64,000 bases of DNA from Gemmatimonadota bacterium (GTDB taxonomy: Bacteria; Gemmatimonadota; Gemmatimonadetes; Gemmatimonadales; GWC2-71-9): contig JBKPOS010000099.1 of assembly GCA_046733215.1 (NCBI GenBank), positions 1,545 to 65,544 of the forward strand, written 5' to 3'. Every line of letters starts with the position of its first letter. Within the stretch, counting starts at the first letter, position 1. A program made the position numbers and the translations under genes. Positions 5,287-46,461 of this stretch are shown in pieces. The notes beneath the pieces were generated by a model. That model was not told the origin of the DNA. It did not search any database and saw only the letters and a list, made by a program, of their open reading frames with translations.

Positions 5287-6492
5287 TCACCCGGCATAGC
5301 GCTCCTCCACAGTTGCCGCGAAGAGTGCTGTGCCGATTAACCCCACACTGCCCGCGATCGCAAACGGCAGCGCGGGAGTGACCTTCCAGAGTACTCCACC
5401 GAGCGTTGCAGCGGGCGTGATAGCAAGACTGCGAATCAGGTAGTACAGGCCAATCCCGCGGGCTCGGACCGTCGGCTCCACGAGATCGACAATGAGCGCC
5501 TTGCGGGCCGGCTCTCCGATCTCCCGGAGTCCCCCGATGACAAAAGCCAGGGCGAGACCGGCAAACGAATGTGCCAGGATCACTATCATCGGAAACGCGG
5601 CAAACGCGAGAAACGTGGCGATGACAAAAGGCTTCCTGCCAAAGCGGTCGGCGAAGTGAGCGGCCGGGAGATAGCACGCGATTGCGGTAGCCATCTGAAT
5701 GGCGACGAGGAGGCCGAACTGAGGTGCGCTGATGCCGACGACATTGAGGGCATAGAGAACAAGAAAGACATCCACCATTCCTTCGCAGGTCCGGATAAAG
5801 ATGTCCGAAAGCAGCAACCGCCGAAGCGGGCCGGGAATCGTTGTCCACACGTGGCGGACGCCCGGTGAACCGATCGGCGTGGGGAGGCTGAGCCTGATGC
5901 GAGACGCCACCAACGCGGCTGTGCAAGCCACTCCGATCGAGATCACGAGACCAATCCGGACGCCATCCCGCACGCCGCAGGTGGCGATGAGCACGCCACC
6001 GATCGTGGGGGCAATCGCGATGGGTATCCGCCGGAGGATCGACTGCACCGAGAAGCCGAGGGCGCGTCGCCGGGTGGGAAGCGCGTCCCCGATTACGGCG
6101 AACAGCGTGGGGCTTGCCATGCTCGACCACGCCATCACGAGCACAACGCCCGCGACTACGAGGGGCCAGGTAGGGGCGAGGGCGACGACACAGTACCCTG
6201 CCGCGGCGATACAAATGAAAAGCGTGAGCGCTCGCCTTCGGCCGTAGCGATCGCCGACCCAGCCGCCCGGGTACTGATAAATCGCGTCGAAGAAGTCTTC
6301 CGTGCTTCCATATGCGCCGATGGCGACGACCGGCGCGCCCAGCGCTTCGAGGTACTTCGGCAGGAACCGTCTCCAGAGATGTTCCCCCAGTGCCATGAGG
6401 AACATCGAGGCAGCAGCGGCGCCGGTATTCCGATCGAGGGCCAGTCGCGAGGCGCCCCGAGTCGCCCAGCTCTGCGCCTTCGATGAGCTCAT
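5287..6492 (-). CDS. MFS transporter
   Basis: About 12 hydrophobic segments. MFS loop motifs occur in both halves (GDRYGRRRAL and ADRFGRKPF). Start set at ATG 6492, which forms an ATGA overlap with the stop of the upstream ChrB-C gene. The longest ORF starts at 6513. Confidence 0.8.
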   Translation of the reverse strand: MSSSKAQSWATRGASRLALDRNTGAAAASMFLMALGEHLWRRFLPKYLEALGAPVVAIGAYGSTEDFFDAIYQYPGGWVGDRYGRRRALTLFICIAAAGYCVVALAPTWPLVVAGVVLVMAWSSMASPTLFAVIGDALPTRRRALGFSVQSILRRIPIAIAPTIGGVLIATCGVRDGVRIGLVISIGVACTAALVASRIRLSLPTPIGSPGVRHVWTTIPGPLRRLLLSDIFIRTCEGMVDVFLVLYALNVVGISAPQFGLLVAIQMATAIACYLPAAHFADRFGRKPFVIATFLAFAAFPMIVILAHSFAGLALAFVIGGLREIGEPARKALIVDLVEPTVRARGIGLYYLIRSLAITPAATLGGVLWKVTPALPFAIAGSVGLIGTALFAATVEERYAG

Positions 6493-10647: not shown

Positions 10648-11571
10648 ATGCTCCTGATGAGCGGTACGGCCAACCGCCCTCTCTCCGAAGAGGTGGCGGC
10701 ACATCTTGGTCAGCCGCTTTGCCAGATCACGATCCGGCGCTTCGCGGACGGCGAGATTTTCGTCAAGATCGACGAGAACGTGCGCGGGCGGGATGTCTTT
10801 ATCATCCAGCCCACCAACCCGCCGGCGGAAAACGTGATGGAGCTCTTGCTCCTCATGGATGCAGCTCGGCGCGCGAGTGCAGCCCGGATTACGGCAGTGA
10901 TTCCGTACTTCGGCTACGCCCGGCAGGATCGCAAGGAGCAACCCCGCGTTGCCATCAGCGCGAAGTTGCTTGCGAACATGGTGTCGGTCGCGGGCGCGGA
11001 CCGGGTGCTGGCAATGGACTTCCACCAGCATCAACTGCAGGGGTTCTTCGATCTGCCGGTCGATCACCTGTACGCCGCGCCGGTGTTCGTGAACCATTAT
11101 CGCCAGAAAGCACTGCGGGAGCTGGTGGTGGTAGCGCCGGACGTCGGCTCTGCCAAGATGGCACGAGGGTTTGCCAAGCGGCTCAACGCCTCGATTGCCA
11201 TCATCGATAAGCGACGCCCGTCGGCCAACATCGCCGAGGTGGTGAACGTCGTGGGTGAGGTTACCGGTAAGGACTGCCTCATCCCGGACGACATGATCGA
11301 TACAGCGGGCACCATGGTCGAGGCGGTGCACGCGTTGAAGCGGCTCGGCGCAGAGGACATCTATTGCTGCGCCAGTCACGCGTTGCTCTCGGGACCGGCG
11401 GTAGAGCGATTCATGAAGTCACCGGTGAAGGAAGTCGCGGTGACTAATACGATCGCGATTCCTCCGGAGCGCTGCTTCGAGCGCCTGAGAGTGCTTTCAA
11501 TTGCGGGATTGTTGTCCAAGGCGATCGGGTACACCCACAGCGACCAGTCGGTGAGCTCGCTCTTCGACTAG
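10648..11571 (+). CDS. prs: Ribose-phosphate pyrophosphokinase
   Basis: RGRDVFIIQPT, YFGYARQDRK, DFHQHQLQGFFDLPVDHL, VVVAPDVGSAKMAR and LIPDDMIDTAGT (PRPP loop). Start trimmed to ATG 10648 (MLLMSGTANRPL). Confidence 0.9.
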   Translation: MLLMSGTANRPLSEEVAAHLGQPLCQITIRRFADGEIFVKIDENVRGRDVFIIQPTNPPAENVMELLLLMDAARRASAARITAVIPYFGYARQDRKEQPRVAISAKLLANMVSVAGADRVLAMDFHQHQLQGFFDLPVDHLYAAPVFVNHYRQKALRELVVVAPDVGSAKMARGFAKRLNASIAIIDKRRPSANIAEVVNVVGEVTGKDCLIPDDMIDTAGTMVEAVHALKRLGAEDIYCCASHALLSGPAVERFMKSPVKEVAVTNTIAIPPERCFERLRVLSIAGLLSKAIGYTHSDQSVSSLFD

Positions 11572-11604
11572 CTGATAGCCGCTAGCTGATAGCTGATAGC
11601 AGCC
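11570..11604 (+). repeat. Tandem heptamer array (AGCTGAT)x5, two units degenerate, beginning inside the prs stop codon
   Basis: Read directly: AGCTGAT AGCCGCT AGCTGAT AGCTGAT AGCAGCC. The prs TAG (11569-11571) overlaps the first unit. Confidence 0.9.
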
Positions 11605-25900: not shown

Positions 25901-26422
25901 AGCGCCCGCCAGTCGCTGCTACAGGCGATCCGAGAGATAGATGGCACGGCGCGCGCCATGTTTCTTGAAACATTCGAAGCCGTCAAAGCGAACTTCCATA
26001 CGGTGTTCGAAACGCTGTTCGGTGGGGGCGAGTGCGATCTTCGGTTGGCCAACCCGGACGATCCGCTGGAAAGCGAAATCGAAATTCTGGCTGCACCGCG
26101 GGGCAAGCGGATCCAGCACGTGCGCCTGTTGTCCATGGGCGAGCGGACGCTGGTCGCGACGTCGCTCCTTTTCGGGCTCTATCTCACCAAGCCGAGCCCC
26201 TTCTGCCTGATGGACGAGGTGGACGCGCCGCTCGACGACGCCAACGTGGGGCGCTTCACCCGTCTCCTCGACGAATTCAAGCGTCAGACCCAGTTTATCG
26301 TCATCACTCACAACCCACGTACCATGCATGCGGCCGATGCGGTGTACGGGGTGACTATGCAGGAGCCGGGTGTATCGACGATCGTGGGAGTGCGGTTGGG
26401 GGAGGCGGTGGGGGTCAGTTAG
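22949..26422 (+). CDS. smc: Chromosome segregation protein SMC
   Basis: MKLTKLELSGFKSFAD, IVGPNGCGKSNVSDA (Walker A), long coiled coils around a hinge, and LSMGERTLVATSLLFGLY...FCLMDEVDAPLDDANV (signature + Walker B). Confidence 0.9.
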   Translation: MKLTKLELSGFKSFADTVTLDFEEGVAAIVGPNGCGKSNVSDAVRWVLGEQSARLLRGGKMEDVIFQGSANRRPVNVTEVALYLDNTDGALPIAYQEVVIARRLSRSGQSDYLLNGTVVRLRDIQDLLRGTGLGSDAGVVIEAEMIKLLLSDRADERRSLFEEAAGIGLYRDRKHSTERRLEETAADLQRVEDLLNEVQSQIRSLARQKGKAERSAKLLEEKFAVQVTLARRQLDQLAERTDGLEARFNQLSDVLPAEREGVGRAGERREETARARTAAEVHRTEIARRLGAVRVEVEKLDGDLALAAERLGTATSRRTKALEERTQTELRAALALTERDAAAADRAAAEAEHANINVEVASRTADEESGRQRLVDQRTAVRQLEEDLQSRAQAVRSLEGERTALEGELASLRDRAAQAVAHREGLRSELEAAERRRDHAIEQAAFRTHEMRRAAGETDRARHRVAEAREREALLRSQRRQAEEALAQTTARREALQELERERVGLAPGAAALLAARDQFGDAVLGPLSDFVRTPPEHAELAERLLGGWTHAILVRDAAAVEAIRRWHAEQQPGALVLLPADPGPQAPVGAPPTDGQLEAEGPAAAWLRTALAGSQVLDDTGRVLRRASGAILLGGAAAPSGPLRRRAELEGLVHEAELASIALGSAEADLGGALSRLATLEETLTHATGAVERARETERAALAAQDDAARFVNNLARELATADAEVARLTDRIERAEQRLVEVDVAMVEGDVTRARLGEELGAARAGLSELETVQEGTREKRAQWQVQEAHVAARLRAATERWERAQATQVEAATGVHALTDELAQLDLDCTALSAQQAQWQEARAERRVALLELETADTEAGAALEAAERALEWAERDVTTQRSLVEAHGEESHRLQIELTEATGLRRNIVERIEAEWRKSIDQLLEEAPRLELDLDTLESESIRIASALEAIGPVNPLAMEEHAEEVKRFEFLSGQRDDLVSARQSLLQAIREIDGTARAMFLETFEAVKANFHTVFETLFGGGECDLRLANPDDPLESEIEILAAPRGKRIQHVRLLSMGERTLVATSLLFGLYLTKPSPFCLMDEVDAPLDDANVGRFTRLLDEFKRQTQFIVITHNPRTMHAADAVYGVTMQEPGVSTIVGVRLGEAVGVS

Positions 26423-26567
26423 CTATCAGCTATCGGCTATCAGATGGCGCGAACACGTATCTCTGACACCGAGTAGCGCGTAGGCGATTTCCGCGTGCGT
26501 GCAACCAGCGGATTACGAGCGCGGCCTCCCCGGCGACTGATAGCTGATAGCTAATAGCTGACTAGCT
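26421..26567. repeat. Inverted heptamer arrays, (AGCTATC)x3 at 26421-26443 and (GATAGCT-type)x4 at 26536-26567, enclosing ~93 nt
   Basis: Read directly. The left arm AGCTATCAGCTATCGGCTATCAG and right arm CTGATAGCTGATAGCTAATAGCT are complementary at 21 of 23 positions. The smc TAG (26420-26422) overlaps the first unit. Confidence 0.9.
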
Positions 26568-40552: not shown

Positions 40553-41587
40553 ATGAGCGTGACGATAGCACCGACAGGAACCCAGGATCTGGAACTGGGC
40601 GACTTCACGACGGAGCGAGGCGACGTAGTCGCGGACGCCCGGCTGCGGTATCGGGTGATCGGCGACGTCGAGGCCGCACAGGAAAACGGCTGGATTCTGG
40701 TCTTTCACGCACTCACTGGCAGCGCGGACGTCGAGGCGTGGTGGGGCCCCCTGGTCGTCCCTGGCGGAGCACTCGATGTCAGCCGCCACGCCGTGCTCTC
40801 GGCGAACCTCCTTGGAGGATGCTACGGCTCCACCAGCCCGATCACCTGGCAAGCCAGCCACGGACGCCGCTTCCCCCGCCTGTCGTCGCTCGATCTCGCG
40901 CGGGCTCATCTGCCTCTCATCAAGCATCTCGGCATCCGGCGGCTCTCGCTCGTCAGCGGTGGATCCCTGGGTGGGATGGTTGCGCTCCAATGGGGACGGG
41001 TAAGCGCCGTTCCGGTGGACCGGTTGGTGGTCTTCGCCGCACCCGCAGCCACCTCGGCGCAGGCGATCGCGTGGAATGCGGCTCAACGCATGGCGATCGA
41101 GGCCGATCCGGCCTGGCAGGACGGACAGTACCGCGAGGGCGAAGGTCCCACGACAGGCCTGGCCGCCGCCCGCGCTATCGCGATGATCACTTATCGGTCG
41201 GCTGCGGAATTCGAGGAGCGGTTCAGCCGTCAATCAAGCCGGGTTCCCGGACGCTTCGATGCGGATCACTACCTCCGCCGTCAGGGCGACAAGCTGGTCG
41301 CACGATTCGATGCCGCGAGCTACGTGGCCCTGATGGATGCGATGGACCTGCACGACGTGGGTGACATCCGTGTGGCCGCGGCTGAGACGGCCGAACGAGT
41401 GGGCGAAGTGATCGGTGTGGGAGTTGACTCGGATATTCTCTACTATCCGGCCGAAGTGCGGGCCTGGACCGACACGTACCGCGCCGCCGGCGCGAACGCG
41501 CGGTATGTTGAGATCAAGTCGCTCTACGGGCACGACGCGTTTTTGATTGAATGGGACCAGGTGGGGTCGATAATGCGTGAACGGTGA
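40553..41587 (+). CDS. metX: Homoserine O-acetyltransferase
   Basis: ATG 40553 with GAGG 9 nt upstream. LVFHALTGSADV, GGSLGGMVALQW (nucleophile elbow) and YGHDAFLIE. Confidence 0.9.
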   Translation: MSVTIAPTGTQDLELGDFTTERGDVVADARLRYRVIGDVEAAQENGWILVFHALTGSADVEAWWGPLVVPGGALDVSRHAVLSANLLGGCYGSTSPITWQASHGRRFPRLSSLDLARAHLPLIKHLGIRRLSLVSGGSLGGMVALQWGRVSAVPVDRLVVFAAPAATSAQAIAWNAAQRMAIEADPAWQDGQYREGEGPTTGLAAARAIAMITYRSAAEFEERFSRQSSRVPGRFDADHYLRRQGDKLVARFDAASYVALMDAMDLHDVGDIRVAAAETAERVGEVIGVGVDSDILYYPAEVRAWTDTYRAAGANARYVEIKSLYGHDAFLIEWDQVGSIMRER

Positions 41588-41655
41588 ACAGTAACGGTAA
41601 ACGGGGGTCCTCTTGACTGGAGCCCCCGTTCACCGTTCACCGTTTTACCGTTCAC
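41577..41655. terminator. Long imperfect hairpin built from GGTGAAC/GTTCACC-type heptamers; bidirectional terminator between metX and the sigma gene
   Basis: Left arm GTGAACGGTGAACAGTAACGGTAAACGGGGG (41577-41607), 15-nt loop, right arm CCCCCGTTCACCGTTCACCGTTTTACCGTTCAC (41623-41655). The metX TGA lies inside the left arm. Confidence 0.65.
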
Positions 41656-42647: not shown

Positions 42648-44132
42648 CTATTGGCCGTAGGTATCGATCTGCGCTTTTTGAAGCCTGCCGGAGTAGTCCA
42701 GATAGCAGACTTTCGTCTCGGAATAGAACTCGTAGACCTCCCAACCGCCTTCGCGGTGCCCGTTCCCGGTTTGCTTCACTCCGCCGAAGGGAAGGTGCGC
42801 CTCCGCGCCGATGGTGGGTGCATTGACGTATGTGATCCCGGTGTCGAGCAGCTCGAGCGCGCGCATCGCGCGGTCCACGCTTCCGGTGTAGATCGAGCTG
42901 GAGAGGCCGTATCGAACGTCATTGTTCACCGCGACGGCTTCCTCGAATGAGTCGACCGAGATGACGCTCAGCACGGGCCCGAAAATTTCTTCCTGCTCGA
43001 GCCGGCTTCCCGGCCGGACACCGGTGAAAATGGTCGGTTGATAGAACCATCCCTTGATCAACTTCCCGCCCGGCGATCGCCCGCCCGTCACCAGCTCGGC
43101 ACGCTCGCGACCAGCGATTTCGACATAACACTCGACCTTCTTGCGGGCATCCTCGTGGATGAGCGGCCCGACCTCGGTATCCGACTCGCGACCGTCGCCG
43201 AGCCGAAGGGCCTCTGCCCGCGCCGCTAAGTCGGCGATGAAGCGGTCGTGAATGCCACGGTGAAGGATCAGACGGCTGGTCGCCGTGCACCGTTGCCCGG
43301 TGGTGCCGAAGGCGCCCCAGAGGACCCCGTCGAGTGCGAGCTCGAGGTCGGCATCGTCCATCACGATCTGGGCGTTCTTGCCGCCCATCTCCAGGGAGAG
43401 GCGCTTGTGCATTCGCCCGCACGTCTCACCGATGGCTGCTCCAGTGGCCGTCGATCCGGTGAAGGAGACCACCGGGACGTCCGGGTGTTCTACCAAGGCC
43501 TTACCGGCAGTCTCTCCCCGGCCGTGGACCAACTGTATGACCTCCGGCGGCAAGCCGGCCTCGACGAGGATTTCGACTAGCGTGTGGGCGGTATGAGGAA
43601 CGTCCTCCGATGGCTTGAGAATGACTGCGTTTCCGCAGAGGAGCGCAGGAAAGACCTTCCAGGTCGGAATTGCGAGCGGAAAGTTGAAGGGCGTGATGAG
43701 ACCGACGACGCCGATCGGCCGGCGATAGCTCATCGCCCATTTACTCCGAAGCTCAGACGGCACCACGTGTCCGAAGAGTCGCCGTCCTTCAGTAGCGGCG
43801 TAGTAAGCGGTATCGATCCCCTCCTGCACGTCCCCCATCGTTTCCGTCAGCACCTTCCCCATCTCACGGGTCATCGCGTCAGCGATGGCTGCCTTCCTCT
43901 CTACCAGCAGATCGCCGACGCGTCGAAGCACATCGCCTCGGGCCGGTGCCGGCGTGCGCGACCAGATGGCAAATCCACGCTTGGCAGACGCGACGGCCTC
44001 CGCGACGTCTGCAGCATCGGAATCCGGGAAGAGGCCGATGAGGTCGTCGGGATTGGCAGGGTTCCGATTCTCGAAATAGGAACCGGAACCAGGGGGGACC
44101 CAGCGGCCGGCGATGAAGTTGGAAAAGGGCAT
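42648..44132 (-). CDS. NAD(P)-dependent aldehyde dehydrogenase
   Basis: FTGSTATGAAI, LEMGGKNAQIV (catalytic Glu) and FGTTGQRCTATSRL (catalytic Cys). Confidence 0.85.
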   Translation of the reverse strand: MPFSNFIAGRWVPPGSGSYFENRNPANPDDLIGLFPDSDAADVAEAVASAKRGFAIWSRTPAPARGDVLRRVGDLLVERKAAIADAMTREMGKVLTETMGDVQEGIDTAYYAATEGRRLFGHVVPSELRSKWAMSYRRPIGVVGLITPFNFPLAIPTWKVFPALLCGNAVILKPSEDVPHTAHTLVEILVEAGLPPEVIQLVHGRGETAGKALVEHPDVPVVSFTGSTATGAAIGETCGRMHKRLSLEMGGKNAQIVMDDADLELALDGVLWGAFGTTGQRCTATSRLILHRGIHDRFIADLAARAEALRLGDGRESDTEVGPLIHEDARKKVECYVEIAGRERAELVTGGRSPGGKLIKGWFYQPTIFTGVRPGSRLEQEEIFGPVLSVISVDSFEEAVAVNNDVRYGLSSSIYTGSVDRAMRALELLDTGITYVNAPTIGAEAHLPFGGVKQTGNGHREGGWEVYEFYSETKVCYLDYSGRLQKAQIDTYGQ

Positions 44133-44141
44133 GGGGATGTG

Positions 44142-44646
44142 AGCTATCAGCTATCAGCTATCGCAGTCCGAGGGTACTGAGCCAATAAAAGAAAGCACAA
44201 GGTTGCTGATCCTACGTGGCGACATTGGGACGAGGAGCGACTATGGGTGACTATCGAAAGCTGGAACTCTGGAACCGATCTCACCAGCTCGCATTAGCAA
44301 TCTATCGTGCCACCGCCAGCTTCCCGTTGCAGAAAAGTACGGCCTAGCAATCCAAATACGGCGAGCTGCAAGTTCTATCCCGATGAACATCGCTGGGGGA
44401 TGTGGACGGAATACGGACCCGGAGCTCTGTCGTTTCTTGAGGATCGCGCTGGGATCAGCCTCCGAGCTCGAATACCAGATATTGCGCGGTCAGGACCTCG
44501 AATACCTCGATCACCCCATGGCTGACCATTTCGTACGCGAGCTCGATGAGATCAAACGGATGCTCGCATCTCTGATACACCGACTACAGGGTCGTGGTCG
44601 ACGAATCCCGCTAGGCCACCAGTCTGATAGCTGATAGCTAATAGCT
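44142..44646. other. Cassette bounded by inverted heptamer arrays, (AGCTATC)x3 at 44142-44162 and CTGATAGCTGATAGCTAATAGCT at 44624-44646
   Basis: Read directly. The arms are complementary at 20 of 21 positions. The right arm is identical over 23 nt to 26537-26559. The interior carries the four-helix-bundle gene and an AT-richer stretch (GCCAATAAAAGAAAGCACAAGG). Mobility is an inference. Confidence 0.45.
44243..44634 (+). pseudogene. Four-helix-bundle protein gene (23S rRNA intervening-sequence protein / Avd family), interrupted by a frameshift
   Basis: ATG 44243 (GGAGG upstream) gives MGDYRKLELWNRSHQLALAIYRATASFPLQKSTA-stop. The family continues in the next frame from 44332: EKYGLAIQIRRAASSIPMNIAGGCGRNTDPELCRFLRIALGSASELEYQIL... 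(ORF 44383..44634). One base appears to be missing at the CAG-AAAAG junction (44329-44337). The stop TGA lies inside the right heptamer array. Confidence 0.7.
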
Positions 44647-44650
44647 CCCC

Positions 44651-45100
44651 TCACCCACACGTCCACCGAATCATTTGCTTCGCGTAGCCCACCCTCGGCA
44701 GCACCTCGGTCATCACCAGGCCCAGGCCCCACAGCGTCACCAGCAGGGCCACGATGTGCGCCAGAGCCCTATGGCGTCGCCAGCTGGAGACAGCGCCCCA
44801 GATTCCGGCCAGCACGACCACGACCGCCGCCGCGAGGTACGTCGCCAGGCCGATGCCGCACCCACGTCCGTACGGCCAGAAAGGCATGGCGAGCGCCAGC
44901 ACCACACCGAGCCCCACCCGCATCCAGGTCGTGAGGCCGGCTGCTTTGTGCGGCTTCGCGACGGCCGGTTGCGGAGTGGGCAGGGCCGGCGCGGCGCCCG
45001 GCTTGGCCGCCGGAACCTCCTCGGGCGGCGGCTGTTGCCGAGCCATGGCGCGGTCGATGGCCGCGAGTTCCTTGTCCCAGTCCCGCGGCTGCTCGCTCAT
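44651..45100 (-). CDS. Hypothetical membrane protein (3 predicted TM segments)
   Basis: ATGA-type overlap with the upstream activator gene. Pro/Ala-rich N-terminal region, then hydrophobic segments. I recognise no family. Confidence 0.5.
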   Translation of the reverse strand: MSEQPRDWDKELAAIDRAMARQQPPPEEVPAAKPGAAPALPTPQPAVAKPHKAAGLTTWMRVGLGVVLALAMPFWPYGRGCGIGLATYLAAAVVVVLAGIWGAVSSWRRHRALAHIVALLVTLWGLGLVMTEVLPRVGYAKQMIRWTCG

Positions 45101-46461
45101 GGCGATTCCCGGCTCAGGCCGTAGCGCTCGATCTTCTTATAAAGGTTTGATCGCGGCATCTTGAGCGACCGGGCGGTCTCGGAGACGTTCCAGTCGTGCT
45201 CGCGAAGCTTCGCCTGGAGGAATGACTTCTCGGCTTCCTGCTTGAAGCTTTCGAAAGTCTGAGCCCGACTCGCCTCGGGTGGCGGAACGGCCCCTTCCGC
45301 CCCGGGGAACAGCCGATCGATGTCGGCCGCGGTCACGATCTTTCCGGCGCCGAGAATAAGTGCCCGTTCGACCGCGTTGCGAAGTTCGCGAATGTTCCCA
45401 GGCCACGCCCGCGCCTGGAGTCTCGCGATGGCCTCGTCGGCAAACTGCTTGGCGGGAACGCCGGCGGTCTGCGCCAGCTGCAGTGTGAAATGATTCACCA
45501 AGGCGGGCACGTCCTCCAGTCGCTCCCGTAGTGGAGGAACATTGATCTCCACCACGTTGAGTCGGTAGAGCAGATCCTCCCGAAAGCGCTGCTCGTCGAT
45601 CTCGAGTCCCAGGTCCTTGTTGGTCGCCGCCAGGACTCGAACGTCTACTTGAACCGCTTTGGCGCCGCCGATGCGGGTGACGACACCTTCCTGCAGCACC
45701 CGCAGCAATTTGGCCTGGGCCGCGAGCGACATGTCGCCCACTTCATCGAGAAAAAGCGTGCCGCCATCGGCCTGCTCGAACTTCCCGGCGCGATCGGCGA
45801 ATGCCCCGGTGAACGAGCCCTTCATGTGACCGAATAGCTCACTTTCGATCAGCTCGGATGGGATGGCCGCACAGTTCACTTCGATGAACGCCTGCGCTCG
45901 TCGAGGCGACGCCTCGTGGAGCGCTCGAGCCACCAGCTCCTTACCGGTTCCGTTCTCGCCCGTGATCAGGACACGGGCGCCGGTCGGCCCGACCCGCGCC
46001 ACCAGCTCATGGACCAGTTTGAGCGCCGCGCTGTCGCCCACCATCGCGTACCGACTGGCTTGATCTTCGCGCAGCCGTTCGTTCTCGCCGACCAGGCGGG
46101 CATGCCGCAGGGCGTTGCGAACCGTCACCAACAGGCGATCGGCGTCCAGCGGTTTTTCCAGGAAGTCGAATGCACCGCGCTGGGTCGCTTCTACCGCAGT
46201 GGCGATGGTCCCGTGGCCTGAGATCATCACGACGGTGGCGGTGGGATCGAAGTCACGCAGGCGAGTCAGGGTCTCGAGCCCGTCGAGACCCGCCATCTTC
46301 ACGTCCAGAAAGACCACGTGGGGCCGATAGTCCTGATACACCGTGATGCCTTCACCGCCGGAAGAGGCGACCCGTACTTCCATCCCCTCGTAGTCGAGCA
46401 CCTGCTTGAGCGCCTGACGGATGCCGGCCTCATCGTCGACGATGAGCACACGATCGCTCAT
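45097..46461 (-). CDS. Sigma-54-dependent response regulator (NtrC family: REC + AAA+ + Fis-type HTH)
   Basis: VLIVDDE...[12 protein letters not shown] (REC). [16 protein letters not shown] (sigma-54 contact loop) and [30 protein letters not shown] (HTH). Confidence 0.9.

Follow-up and report, generated by a model that had tools for sequence, protein, structure and literature searches.

What is the short insert that separates two genes of an operon in a Gemmatimonadota bacterium, and how are the repeats at its ends related to the gene between them? The insert lies in a 64,000-nt stretch of contig JBKPOS010000099.1 (assembly GCA_046733215.1), which we call the window. It is a 505-bp cassette located just before the start codon of an aldehyde dehydrogenase (ALDH) gene. 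Inverted arrays of a 7-base repeat close the cassette, and its interior of ~460 bp carries a decayed gene of the PF05635/TIGR02436 family, i.e., the four-helix-bundle family to which the proteins of 23S rRNA intervening sequences (IVSs) belong. The function of the 23S rRNA IVS protein and the meaning of heptamer repeats are two long-standing puzzles that have so far been treated apart. We found that the heptamer-bracketed layout recurs around most sampled relatives of the gene, across phyla and outside rRNA. Our interpretation, which we hold to be slightly on the probable side, is that the insert is an IVS-type fold-out gene cassette: a selfish insert of ~500 bp in which a PF05635 gene is closed by inverted 7-nt arrays, and whose arms pair in the transcript.

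The cassette, its gene and the ALDH junction

Three perfect AGCTATC units in the left arm of the cassette face CTGATAGCTGATAGCTAATAGCT (GATAGCT, GATAGCT, AATAGCT) in the right arm (Table 1). A first-pass annotation of this DNA had described these arms as complementary at 20 of 21 positions, and had placed them 9 nt from the ALDH ATG and 4 nt from the stop codon of the upstream gene at 44651. We reproduced the coordinates and the pairing, and both gaps are correct. With its imperfect extensions, the inverted repeat comprises 30 nt (44133-44162 and 44626-44655, at 87%). The 14-mer AGCTATCAGCTATC, with at most two mismatches allowed, has 11 matches in the window versus 0.13 expected, and a count of 11 was reached in none of 100 shuffles. 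On the outward-reading strand, the array unit is TAGCTGA, a tandem, intergenic and stop-rich repeat of the type NNNCTGA. The right arm has stop codons (TGA, TAG or TAA) in all three frames of the + strand.

The composition of the cassette differs from that of its surroundings. Its GC content is 53.9% versus 64.6% in the window, and GC at third codon positions is 56-61% in the cassette gene versus 76% in ALDH. The start of the interior had been annotated as AT-rich; it is indeed AT-richer, but this is true of the whole cassette and not of the start alone. The cassette gene is antisense to both flanking operon genes, and the Shine-Dalgarno-like motif in its leader is GAGGAG (44232-44237) rather than the GGAGG ribosome-binding site that had been proposed. 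There was no match inside the cassette to a consensus (sigma-70-like) promoter or to a terminator, and an Rfam scan of positions 43000-46000 returned no RNA family. Neither the cassette nor its neighbors encode a transposase or recombinase. The neighboring genes correspond to ALDH, an NtrC-type regulator, LigT, a sigma factor and hypothetical proteins, with no reverse transcriptase among them. A second copy of the cassette interior does not occur in the 64-kb window, where only the arms recur.

Two open reading frame (ORF) fragments make up the interior gene, one at 44243-44347 and one in another frame that continues to 44634. They become a single protein after a 1-nt repair. The repaired protein matches PF05635 with 118.6 bits (cut-off 33.8) over profile positions 1-105 of 106 and TIGR02436 with 118.7 bits (cut-off 24), in agreement with the initial assignment to the 23S-IVS/Avd family. 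Its nearest solved chain by sequence is 2gsc_A (XCC0516, E = 2.6e-20). The more specific possibility that the protein is Avd, the accessory protein of diversity-generating retroelements (DGRs), was rejected, given a score of 16.7 bits with NF033474 (cut-off 80) and no adjacent reverse transcriptase. As had been noticed from the sequence at the outset, the stop codon is supplied by the right array: this TGA (44632-44634) straddles two units of the arm.

The 1-nt frameshift that the annotation had suspected is genuine, but it is located at 44321-44322 and not at 44329-44337. At this position, the window has TT, while an intact allele on contig L007 (protein P0001, 130 aa, 98% identity) has TTT. 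The identical deletion occurs in all six other aligned assemblies of the locus, which rules out a sequencing error and makes the gene a true pseudogene. A second, independent frameshift breaks the copy in contig L210. Among the intact copies, dN/dS is 0.13-0.31, and dN is ~4 times that of ALDH. By these measures, the intact copies are under purifying selection, and the protein is functional but loosely constrained. The gene has been lost independently at least twice while the arrays stayed, and it is dispensable in cis.

Near-identical strains provide a view of the same locus at short range. Six contigs from different samples encode an identical ALDH, and L007 is the seventh member of this lineage set (L001-L007). 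All six have the cassette, and among these near-identical strains there are 3, 4 or 5 array units on the ALDH side and 2 or 3 on the other side. Over all loci, we observed copy numbers of 2, 3, 4, 5 and about 12. The arrays gain and lose units from strain to strain, probably by replication slippage. The orientation of the interior is shared by the window, L001-L007 and the more divergent contigs L008, L210-212 and L213.

These divergent contigs belong to a comparison of the junction among ALDH orthologues with 83-91% identity (Table 1). The junction is filled in the window, L008, L210 and L213, and empty in L215-217 and L218, so the presence/absence polymorphism expected of the discrete module that had been proposed does exist. 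A neighbor-joining tree of concatenated NtrC, ALDH and sigma factor proteins (1,240 columns) splits the four lineages with a filled junction from the two with an empty one, at 99.8% bootstrap support. Given this split, the simplest history is a single insertion followed by vertical descent. Judged from these junctions, the cassette, which is foreign in composition, was inserted as a discrete unit into a 16-37-nt spacer, once, in the ancestor of a sub-clade of Gemmatimonadales. No target-site duplication is visible when the filled sites (window, L008, L210 and L213) are compared with the empty sites (L215 and L218), the spacers being much diverged. In the two lineages with an empty junction, no arrays occur within the 7.5 kb examined.

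The repeat unit itself changed within the filled clade. AGCTATC/GATAGCT is found in the window lineage alone, while the sister lineage and both cousins have CGCTATC/GATAGCG. Compensatory changes of the unit have therefore affected each repeat in the two arms. The two arms can also be very unequal. In L210, in addition to the 3 units on one side, there is an ALDH-side array (2912-2997) of ~12 GGATAGC units, including two of the variant GGATTGC, that ends 4 nt before the ALDH ATG.

Heptamer arrays with and without the gene

We collected relatives of the gene with 46-57% identity at 80 metagenome loci, in which 68 genes have enough flanking sequence on both sides. A bracketing inverted repeat with a score of at least 12 surrounds 47 of these 68 genes, compared to 1 of 148 shifted controls. 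The motif TCAGC occurs 1.81 times per 120 nt upstream of the genes versus 0.14 times in controls (~13-fold), and GCTGA occurs 2.49 times per 120 nt downstream versus 0.18 times (~14-fold). Of 243 distances between successive motifs at the genes, 192 are exactly 7 nt, and the usual layout is 5′-(TCAGCNN)n...(NNGCTGA)n-3′. The elements are 399-629 bp long (median 451 bp), and the downstream arm usually overlaps or adjoins the end of the ORF. In 36 elements it is the 3′ arm that is rich in stop codons, in 4 it is the 5′ arm, and the remaining 7 have no stop-rich arm; three NNGCTGA units place TGA in every frame. Since an inverted repeat is alike on both strands, either transcript would read 5′-(UCAGCNN)n...(NNGCUGA)n-3′.

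None of the 80 sampled loci contains rRNA. The gene is usually packaged between inverted heptamer arrays, and the package is a discrete insertion whose gain can be dated. With the sampled relatives located in ordinary operon spacers, a curiosity of rRNA becomes a general class of element. The earlier view of a discrete, possibly mobile or RNA-processed module with a stem made of heptamers is supported in its main lines by this bracketing and by the polymorphism of the ALDH junction.

The reverse search, from arrays to the gene, gave a different picture. A scan for GCTATCNGCTATCNGCTATC in one genome per species yielded at least 120 loci, and the matches listed come from Gemmatimonadota, Cyanobacteria, Chloroflexota, Bacteroidota, Planctomycetota, Acidobacteriota and others. 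A four-helix-bundle gene lies within 400 bp of 5 of the 120 xGCTATC arrays listed, a count that has no matched background rate, and 4 of these 5 genes are bracketed by inverted arrays. Among the matches listed, most xGCTATC arrays are solo, and many loci are short, gene-less hairpin pairs. With so few arrays near the gene, the arrays are not simply gene markers. The co-occurrence of arrays and gene that had been proposed as a check is therefore very strong from gene to array, but weak from array to gene.

Some individual loci have additional properties. Contig L039 (Gemmatimonadetes bacterium AG40) contains two cassettes 4.7 kb apart (1128-2049 and 5824-6327) that differ in their units, xGCTATC versus GGTGTCT (GGTGTCT/AGACACC), and a third xGATAGC array is found ~430 bp past the first cassette. 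A plasmid of Calothrix PCC 7716 has a four-helix-bundle gene with TTAGCNN/NNGCTAA inverted arrays. On plasmid pPg_01 of Pseudanabaena galeata CCNP1313 (L219, 45868-47045), the gene is located between cas6 and cas4, with ~17 AAAGCTA units upstream, up to the ATG, and ~10 AAAAGCC units downstream. Insertions such as this one could explain why the family has been flagged as cas-associated, and they are relevant to annotation: cas operons are among the operons that such cassettes interrupt, and there the gene is flagged as possibly cas-associated. In plasmid 1 of Gemmatirosa kalamazoonensis (L222, ~1007186-1008324), a four-helix-bundle homolog is flanked by 8-nt arrays, with four copies of CTCCTGCC downstream and the inverse, GGCAGGAG-type unit upstream, so the period is not fixed at 7. 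Two four-helix-bundle genes occur in tandem on one metagenome contig (L189, 2086-2851).

The window has four array sites including the cassette, of which two are paired, one is solo and one is a hairpin of another unit (Table 1). In the gene-less pair at 26.4 kb, the first unit overlaps the TAG stop codon of the SMC gene. The spacer between SMC and DAHP synthase (DAHPS) lacks arrays in L229 (18 nt) and L227 (77 nt). It measures 134 nt in L225, where a CGCTATC/GATAGCG pair encloses an unrelated interior, 173 nt in the window and 197 nt in L223. None of these four relatives (L223, L225, L227 and L229) has a four-helix-bundle gene at this junction. The interiors of the 26.4-kb pair and the cassette are not significantly similar: their best local alignment scores 23, versus a shuffle mean of 17.7 (sd 2.2, maximum 26). 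We considered whether this pair is an internal-deletion derivative of the cassette, but this is unproven, as the alignment score is within the shuffle range and there is no gene-bearing relative. The unit at these sites follows the lineage, with AGCTATC at three loci in the window lineage and CGCTATC at two loci in the L210/L225 lineage. When L225 is taken to represent the lineage of L210, CGCTATC is present at both loci, and the unit is lineage-specific across loci.

The hairpin between the MetX-like and sigma factor genes consists of an unrelated heptamer. Its array (41577-41655) encodes the C-terminus of MetX (MRER*), and its copy number varies in L001 and L004. Only the MetX-side arm exists in L008 (368-387) and L210 (5525-5546), and L213 (5495-5555) has a pair of a different unit, GTGAGAA/TTCTCAC. 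These states of the junction suggest that a solo array may acquire, or lose, an inverted partner.

Table 1. Positions of features in the window, and states of the ALDH junction in related contigs
Feature	Position	Strand	Description
Solo TAGCTGA-type array	11569-11600	+	Between the prs stop codon and the L25 gene; prs TAG in first unit; stop-rich orientation
Gene-less pair	26419-26567		AGCTATC-type array (26419-26443) faces GATAGCT-type array (26537-26567); 93-nt interior; between SMC stop and DAHP synthase start
Hairpin of another heptamer	41577-41655		GTGAACG x4 faces CCGTTCA x4; 21-nt loop; between convergent MetX-like and sigma factor genes
ALDH gene	42648-44132	-	Downstream gene of interrupted operon; ATG 9 nt from left array
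Left arm of cassette	44133-44162		Perfect AGCTATC x3 (44142-44162) and 9-nt imperfect extension (44133-44141) up to ALDH start codon
Leader of cassette gene	44163-44242	+	53.7% GC; contains the GAGGAG motif
PF05635/TIGR02436 four-helix-bundle gene (pseudogene)	44243-44634	+	Profile match after repair; one T lost at 44321-44322
Right arm of cassette	44624-44655		Three units (44624-44646) and 9-nt imperfect extension
Hypothetical membrane protein gene (149 aa)	44651-45100	-	Upstream gene of interrupted junction; stop 4 nt from right array
Junction in L008			ALDH 87% identical; intact four-helix-bundle gene; CGCTATC/CGCTGTC and GATAGCG/GACAGCG arrays
Junction in L213			ALDH 88% identical; intact four-helix-bundle gene; CGCTATC-type (GCTATCC/GGATAGC) arrays
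Junction in L210-212			ALDH 91% identical; gene broken by a different frameshift; 3 units on one side, ~12 on ALDH side
Junction in L215-217			ALDH 84% identical; empty; 16 nt from upstream stop to ALDH ATG
Junction in L218			ALDH 83% identical; empty; 37 nt from upstream stop to ALDH ATG

Predicted fold and competing explanations

In the predicted RNA fold of positions 44125-44662, the array stem closes the whole domain. This holds for both the minimum free energy and centroid structures, and for both strands. The operon (minus) strand is predicted to form 22 contiguous pairs including one G.U (z = -4.3), and the gene strand has a C.A mismatch at the position of this G.U (z = -2.1). With its extension, the predicted stem runs as far as the stop codon upstream and the ALDH start codon; on the minus strand, the added part joins positions 44647-44662, around the upstream stop, to positions 44125-44141, around the ALDH AUG. 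ALDH has no visible Shine-Dalgarno motif, and it is a possibility that its translation might depend on ribosomes that terminate upstream.

Under the IVS-type interpretation, the arms would pair in the transcript of either strand. Three units would give a 21-bp stem, and a stem of at least 21 bp corresponds to about two turns of double-stranded RNA, a length typical of RNase III substrates. Processing by RNase III has been demonstrated for the 23S IVSs of Coxiella and Leptospira, and by analogy the stem would be an RNase III site. It would extrude the 460-nt interior and bring together the upstream stop codon (4 nt away) and the ALDH start codon (9 nt away), and the re-joined stop and start would limit polar damage to the operon. 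An NNGCTGA 3′ arm, with stops in three frames, would terminate the cassette ORF in any frame, and the probable target of the four-helix-bundle protein is nucleic acid, on which it would act in trans. In this model, we infer pairing in vivo, cleavage by RNase III and restored translational coupling.

Several observations weigh against this model. Stem mismatches in the 47 elements are unbiased: those that would be G.U pairs number 29 for the gene strand and 31 for the opposite one, so there is no sign of selection on one particular transcript. Between the arms of many relatives, matches are largely limited to the 5-nt core, with differences at the NN positions, which fits a protein-binding motif as well as a helix. 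The prevalence of solo arrays and gene-less hairpins of this unit means that arrays also exist in their own right, apart from the gene. The lineage-wide identity of the unit, which is the same at three loci in the window lineage and different at two corresponding loci in the sister lineage, calls for more than RNA pairing. In addition, neither a target-site duplication (in the filled/empty comparison) nor a transposase or second copy of the interior (in the 64-kb window) was found. The lineage-wide unit, the abundant solo arrays and the core-only matches keep alive two rivals, one based on mobile DNA and one on a trans-binding protein.

The arrays could be sites at the DNA level, an explanation that we consider unlikely. 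The cassette would then be a non-autonomous mobile element resembling miniature inverted-repeat transposable elements or repetitive extragenic palindromes and their mosaics (REP/BIME), with the arrays as terminal inverted repeats (TIRs) that an enzyme encoded elsewhere recognizes as a duplex or cruciform, and the gene as cargo or helper. The presence/absence polymorphism at two junctions (ALDH and SMC-DAHPS), the low GC content of the cassette, the TIRs themselves and the uniform element length of 399-629 bp are all in line with such an element, as are the gene-less derivatives with the same arms in the same genome, the use of one unit at several loci per lineage and of another in the sister lineage, and the lack of strand bias in stem mismatches. 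However, no target-site duplication is visible between the filled and empty sites, much diverged as their spacers are, no transposase or recombinase is encoded in the cassette or its neighbors, the interiors of the two paired elements are not significantly similar, and the cassette entered the ALDH locus once, long ago, and was then inherited vertically. Similarly doubtful, in our view, is the explanation that the arrays are binding sites of a trans-acting protein, for which a four-helix-bundle autoregulator, a cold-shock-domain protein or IHF/HU are candidates, with the inversion reflecting operator geometry. The related Avd functions together with nucleic acid in DGRs. Binding is suggested by the conserved core TCAGC/GCTGA of 5 nt, which recurs strictly every 7 nt while the NN positions vary; solo arrays occur just upstream of genes, and a lineage-specific unit across loci is expected if a reader protein co-evolves with its sites. 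Inverted heptamer pairs in Geobacter were proposed to be sites of a global regulator (PMC2700814), and a possible role as CspB-type sites has been considered for TAACTGA arrays (PMC4679880). Conversely, the arrays persist and even expand beside a broken gene, although a paralog could supply the protein. The arms in this lineage are perfectly complementary unit by unit, with compensatory change, and binding is putative for every member of the family.

Two further explanations have very little in their favor. Inverted repeats around a short segment at a gene start are the geometry of known invertons, and inverted repeats of 21-30 bp do flank the ~460-bp segment beside the start of ALDH. On this view, expression of the gene or of ALDH would be switched when a recombinase inverted the 460-bp interior. 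We rejected this highly improbable reading, since the interior has a uniform orientation in every assembly examined, there is no recombinase gene nearby, and no promoter-like site is present inside. We also give almost no credence to the idea that the arrays are a chance or mutational simple-sequence repeat unrelated to the gene, or that the gene is the Avd of a DGR. Heptamer microsatellites are common in these phyla, and there is a weak match to NF033474. However, a chance origin is ruled out by the excess of matches in the window and by the contrast between genes and shifted controls, and the Avd score is below its cut-off in a neighborhood that lacks a reverse transcriptase.

A broader proposal, which is speculative and in our estimation quite improbable, would unite these observations. 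PF05635 genes and short-period (mostly 7-nt) arrays would form one cross-phylum system, in which the protein is a trans-acting reader or propagating factor and the IVS in rRNA is the special case that was noticed first. Solo arrays and gene-less hairpins, including the short tandemly repeated repetitive (STRR) sequences of cyanobacteria, TAACTGA repeats and the class 3 sites of Geobacter, would be footprints or non-autonomous derivatives of the system. If this were true, bacterial heptamer repeats, a decades-old puzzle, would gain a concrete and testable protein partner.

Comparison with known systems

The Correia repeat-enclosed elements of Neisseria are short intergenic inserts whose TIRs fold in mRNA and are cut by RNase III, with altered expression of neighboring genes. 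Their inverted repeats are not tandem, they contain no gene, and they duplicate a TA target. They therefore resemble the cassette in their intergenic location and TIRs, but differ in having neither tandem arrays nor a gene. Avd has a distantly related four-helix-bundle fold and is in the same Pfam family as the cassette gene. Apart from the low Avd score given above, the locus has no reverse transcriptase and no template/variable repeat pair.

Direct repeats of TAACTGA are known from Beggiatoaceae, Cyanobacteria and Bacteroidetes, where they closely precede start codons (PMC4679880). Like the arrays of the cassette, these repeats and the cyanobacterial STRRs have 7-nt units in 2-6 or more copies and are intergenic. 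As here, TAACTGA repeats often directly precede a start codon or share bases with a stop codon upstream, and they contain stops in all forward frames. The position of the solo array at 11569-11600 resembles that of these repeats ahead of start codons. TAACTGA is one base apart from the TAGCTGA unit, and the phyletic range is similarly patchy. In contrast to the inverted arms of the cassette, TAACTGA repeats are almost only direct (1 inverted set among 170), and no associated gene family was reported.

In Geobacter metallireducens, eight opposite-strand pairs of arrays, each with five MTYCTGA units, are located between operon genes and were annotated as putative IHF/HU sites (PMC2700814). The consensus unit of these “class 3 global regulator binding sites” can be compared with TAGCTGA. 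The pairs are ~100 bp apart between adjacent operon genes, like the gene-less pair at 26.4 kb. Unlike the cassette, they were described without an enclosed gene and without a link to PF05635. The architecture of the cassette had initially been regarded as undescribed. This was too strong, because both these inverted pairs and the heptamers of the Coxiella IVS (PMC4990558) are published; nevertheless, our literature search found no paper that links PF05635 genes to heptamer arrays in general outside rRNA.

The closest known counterparts are the 23S IVSs. The Coxiella IVS has 428 nt, a 28-bp terminal stem and an ORF, S23p, of the PF05635 family. Its 5′ arm consists of two or three tandem GACAGAT heptamers, depending on the strain, RNase III cuts within the stem, and the ORF is regarded as decaying and unlikely to be expressed (PMC4990558). 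The IVSs of Coxiella and Leptospira share with the cassette a PF05635 protein in the loop. Their sizes of 428-444 nt compare with 505 bp for the cassette and a median of 451 bp for its relatives, and the 28-bp stem of Coxiella with terminal inverted repeats of 21-30 bp. The Coxiella IVS and the cassette also have in common strain-variable tandem heptamers, a GC content below that of the host, and a decaying ORF within an element that persists. Differences are seen in the heptamer itself (AGCTATC versus GACAGAT) and in the location, which is helix 9, 25 or 45 of the rRNA for 23S IVSs, while the cassette is between protein-coding genes of an operon and antisense to them. Cleavage by RNase III was shown for Coxiella and is proposed for the cassette. 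In spite of its location, the cassette has the hallmarks of an IVS, namely a closing stem of at least 20 bp, a PF05635 ORF in the loop, a size of ~0.4-0.8 kb and variable tandem heptamers. The element thus appears to resemble a 23S IVS that is placed in an mRNA.

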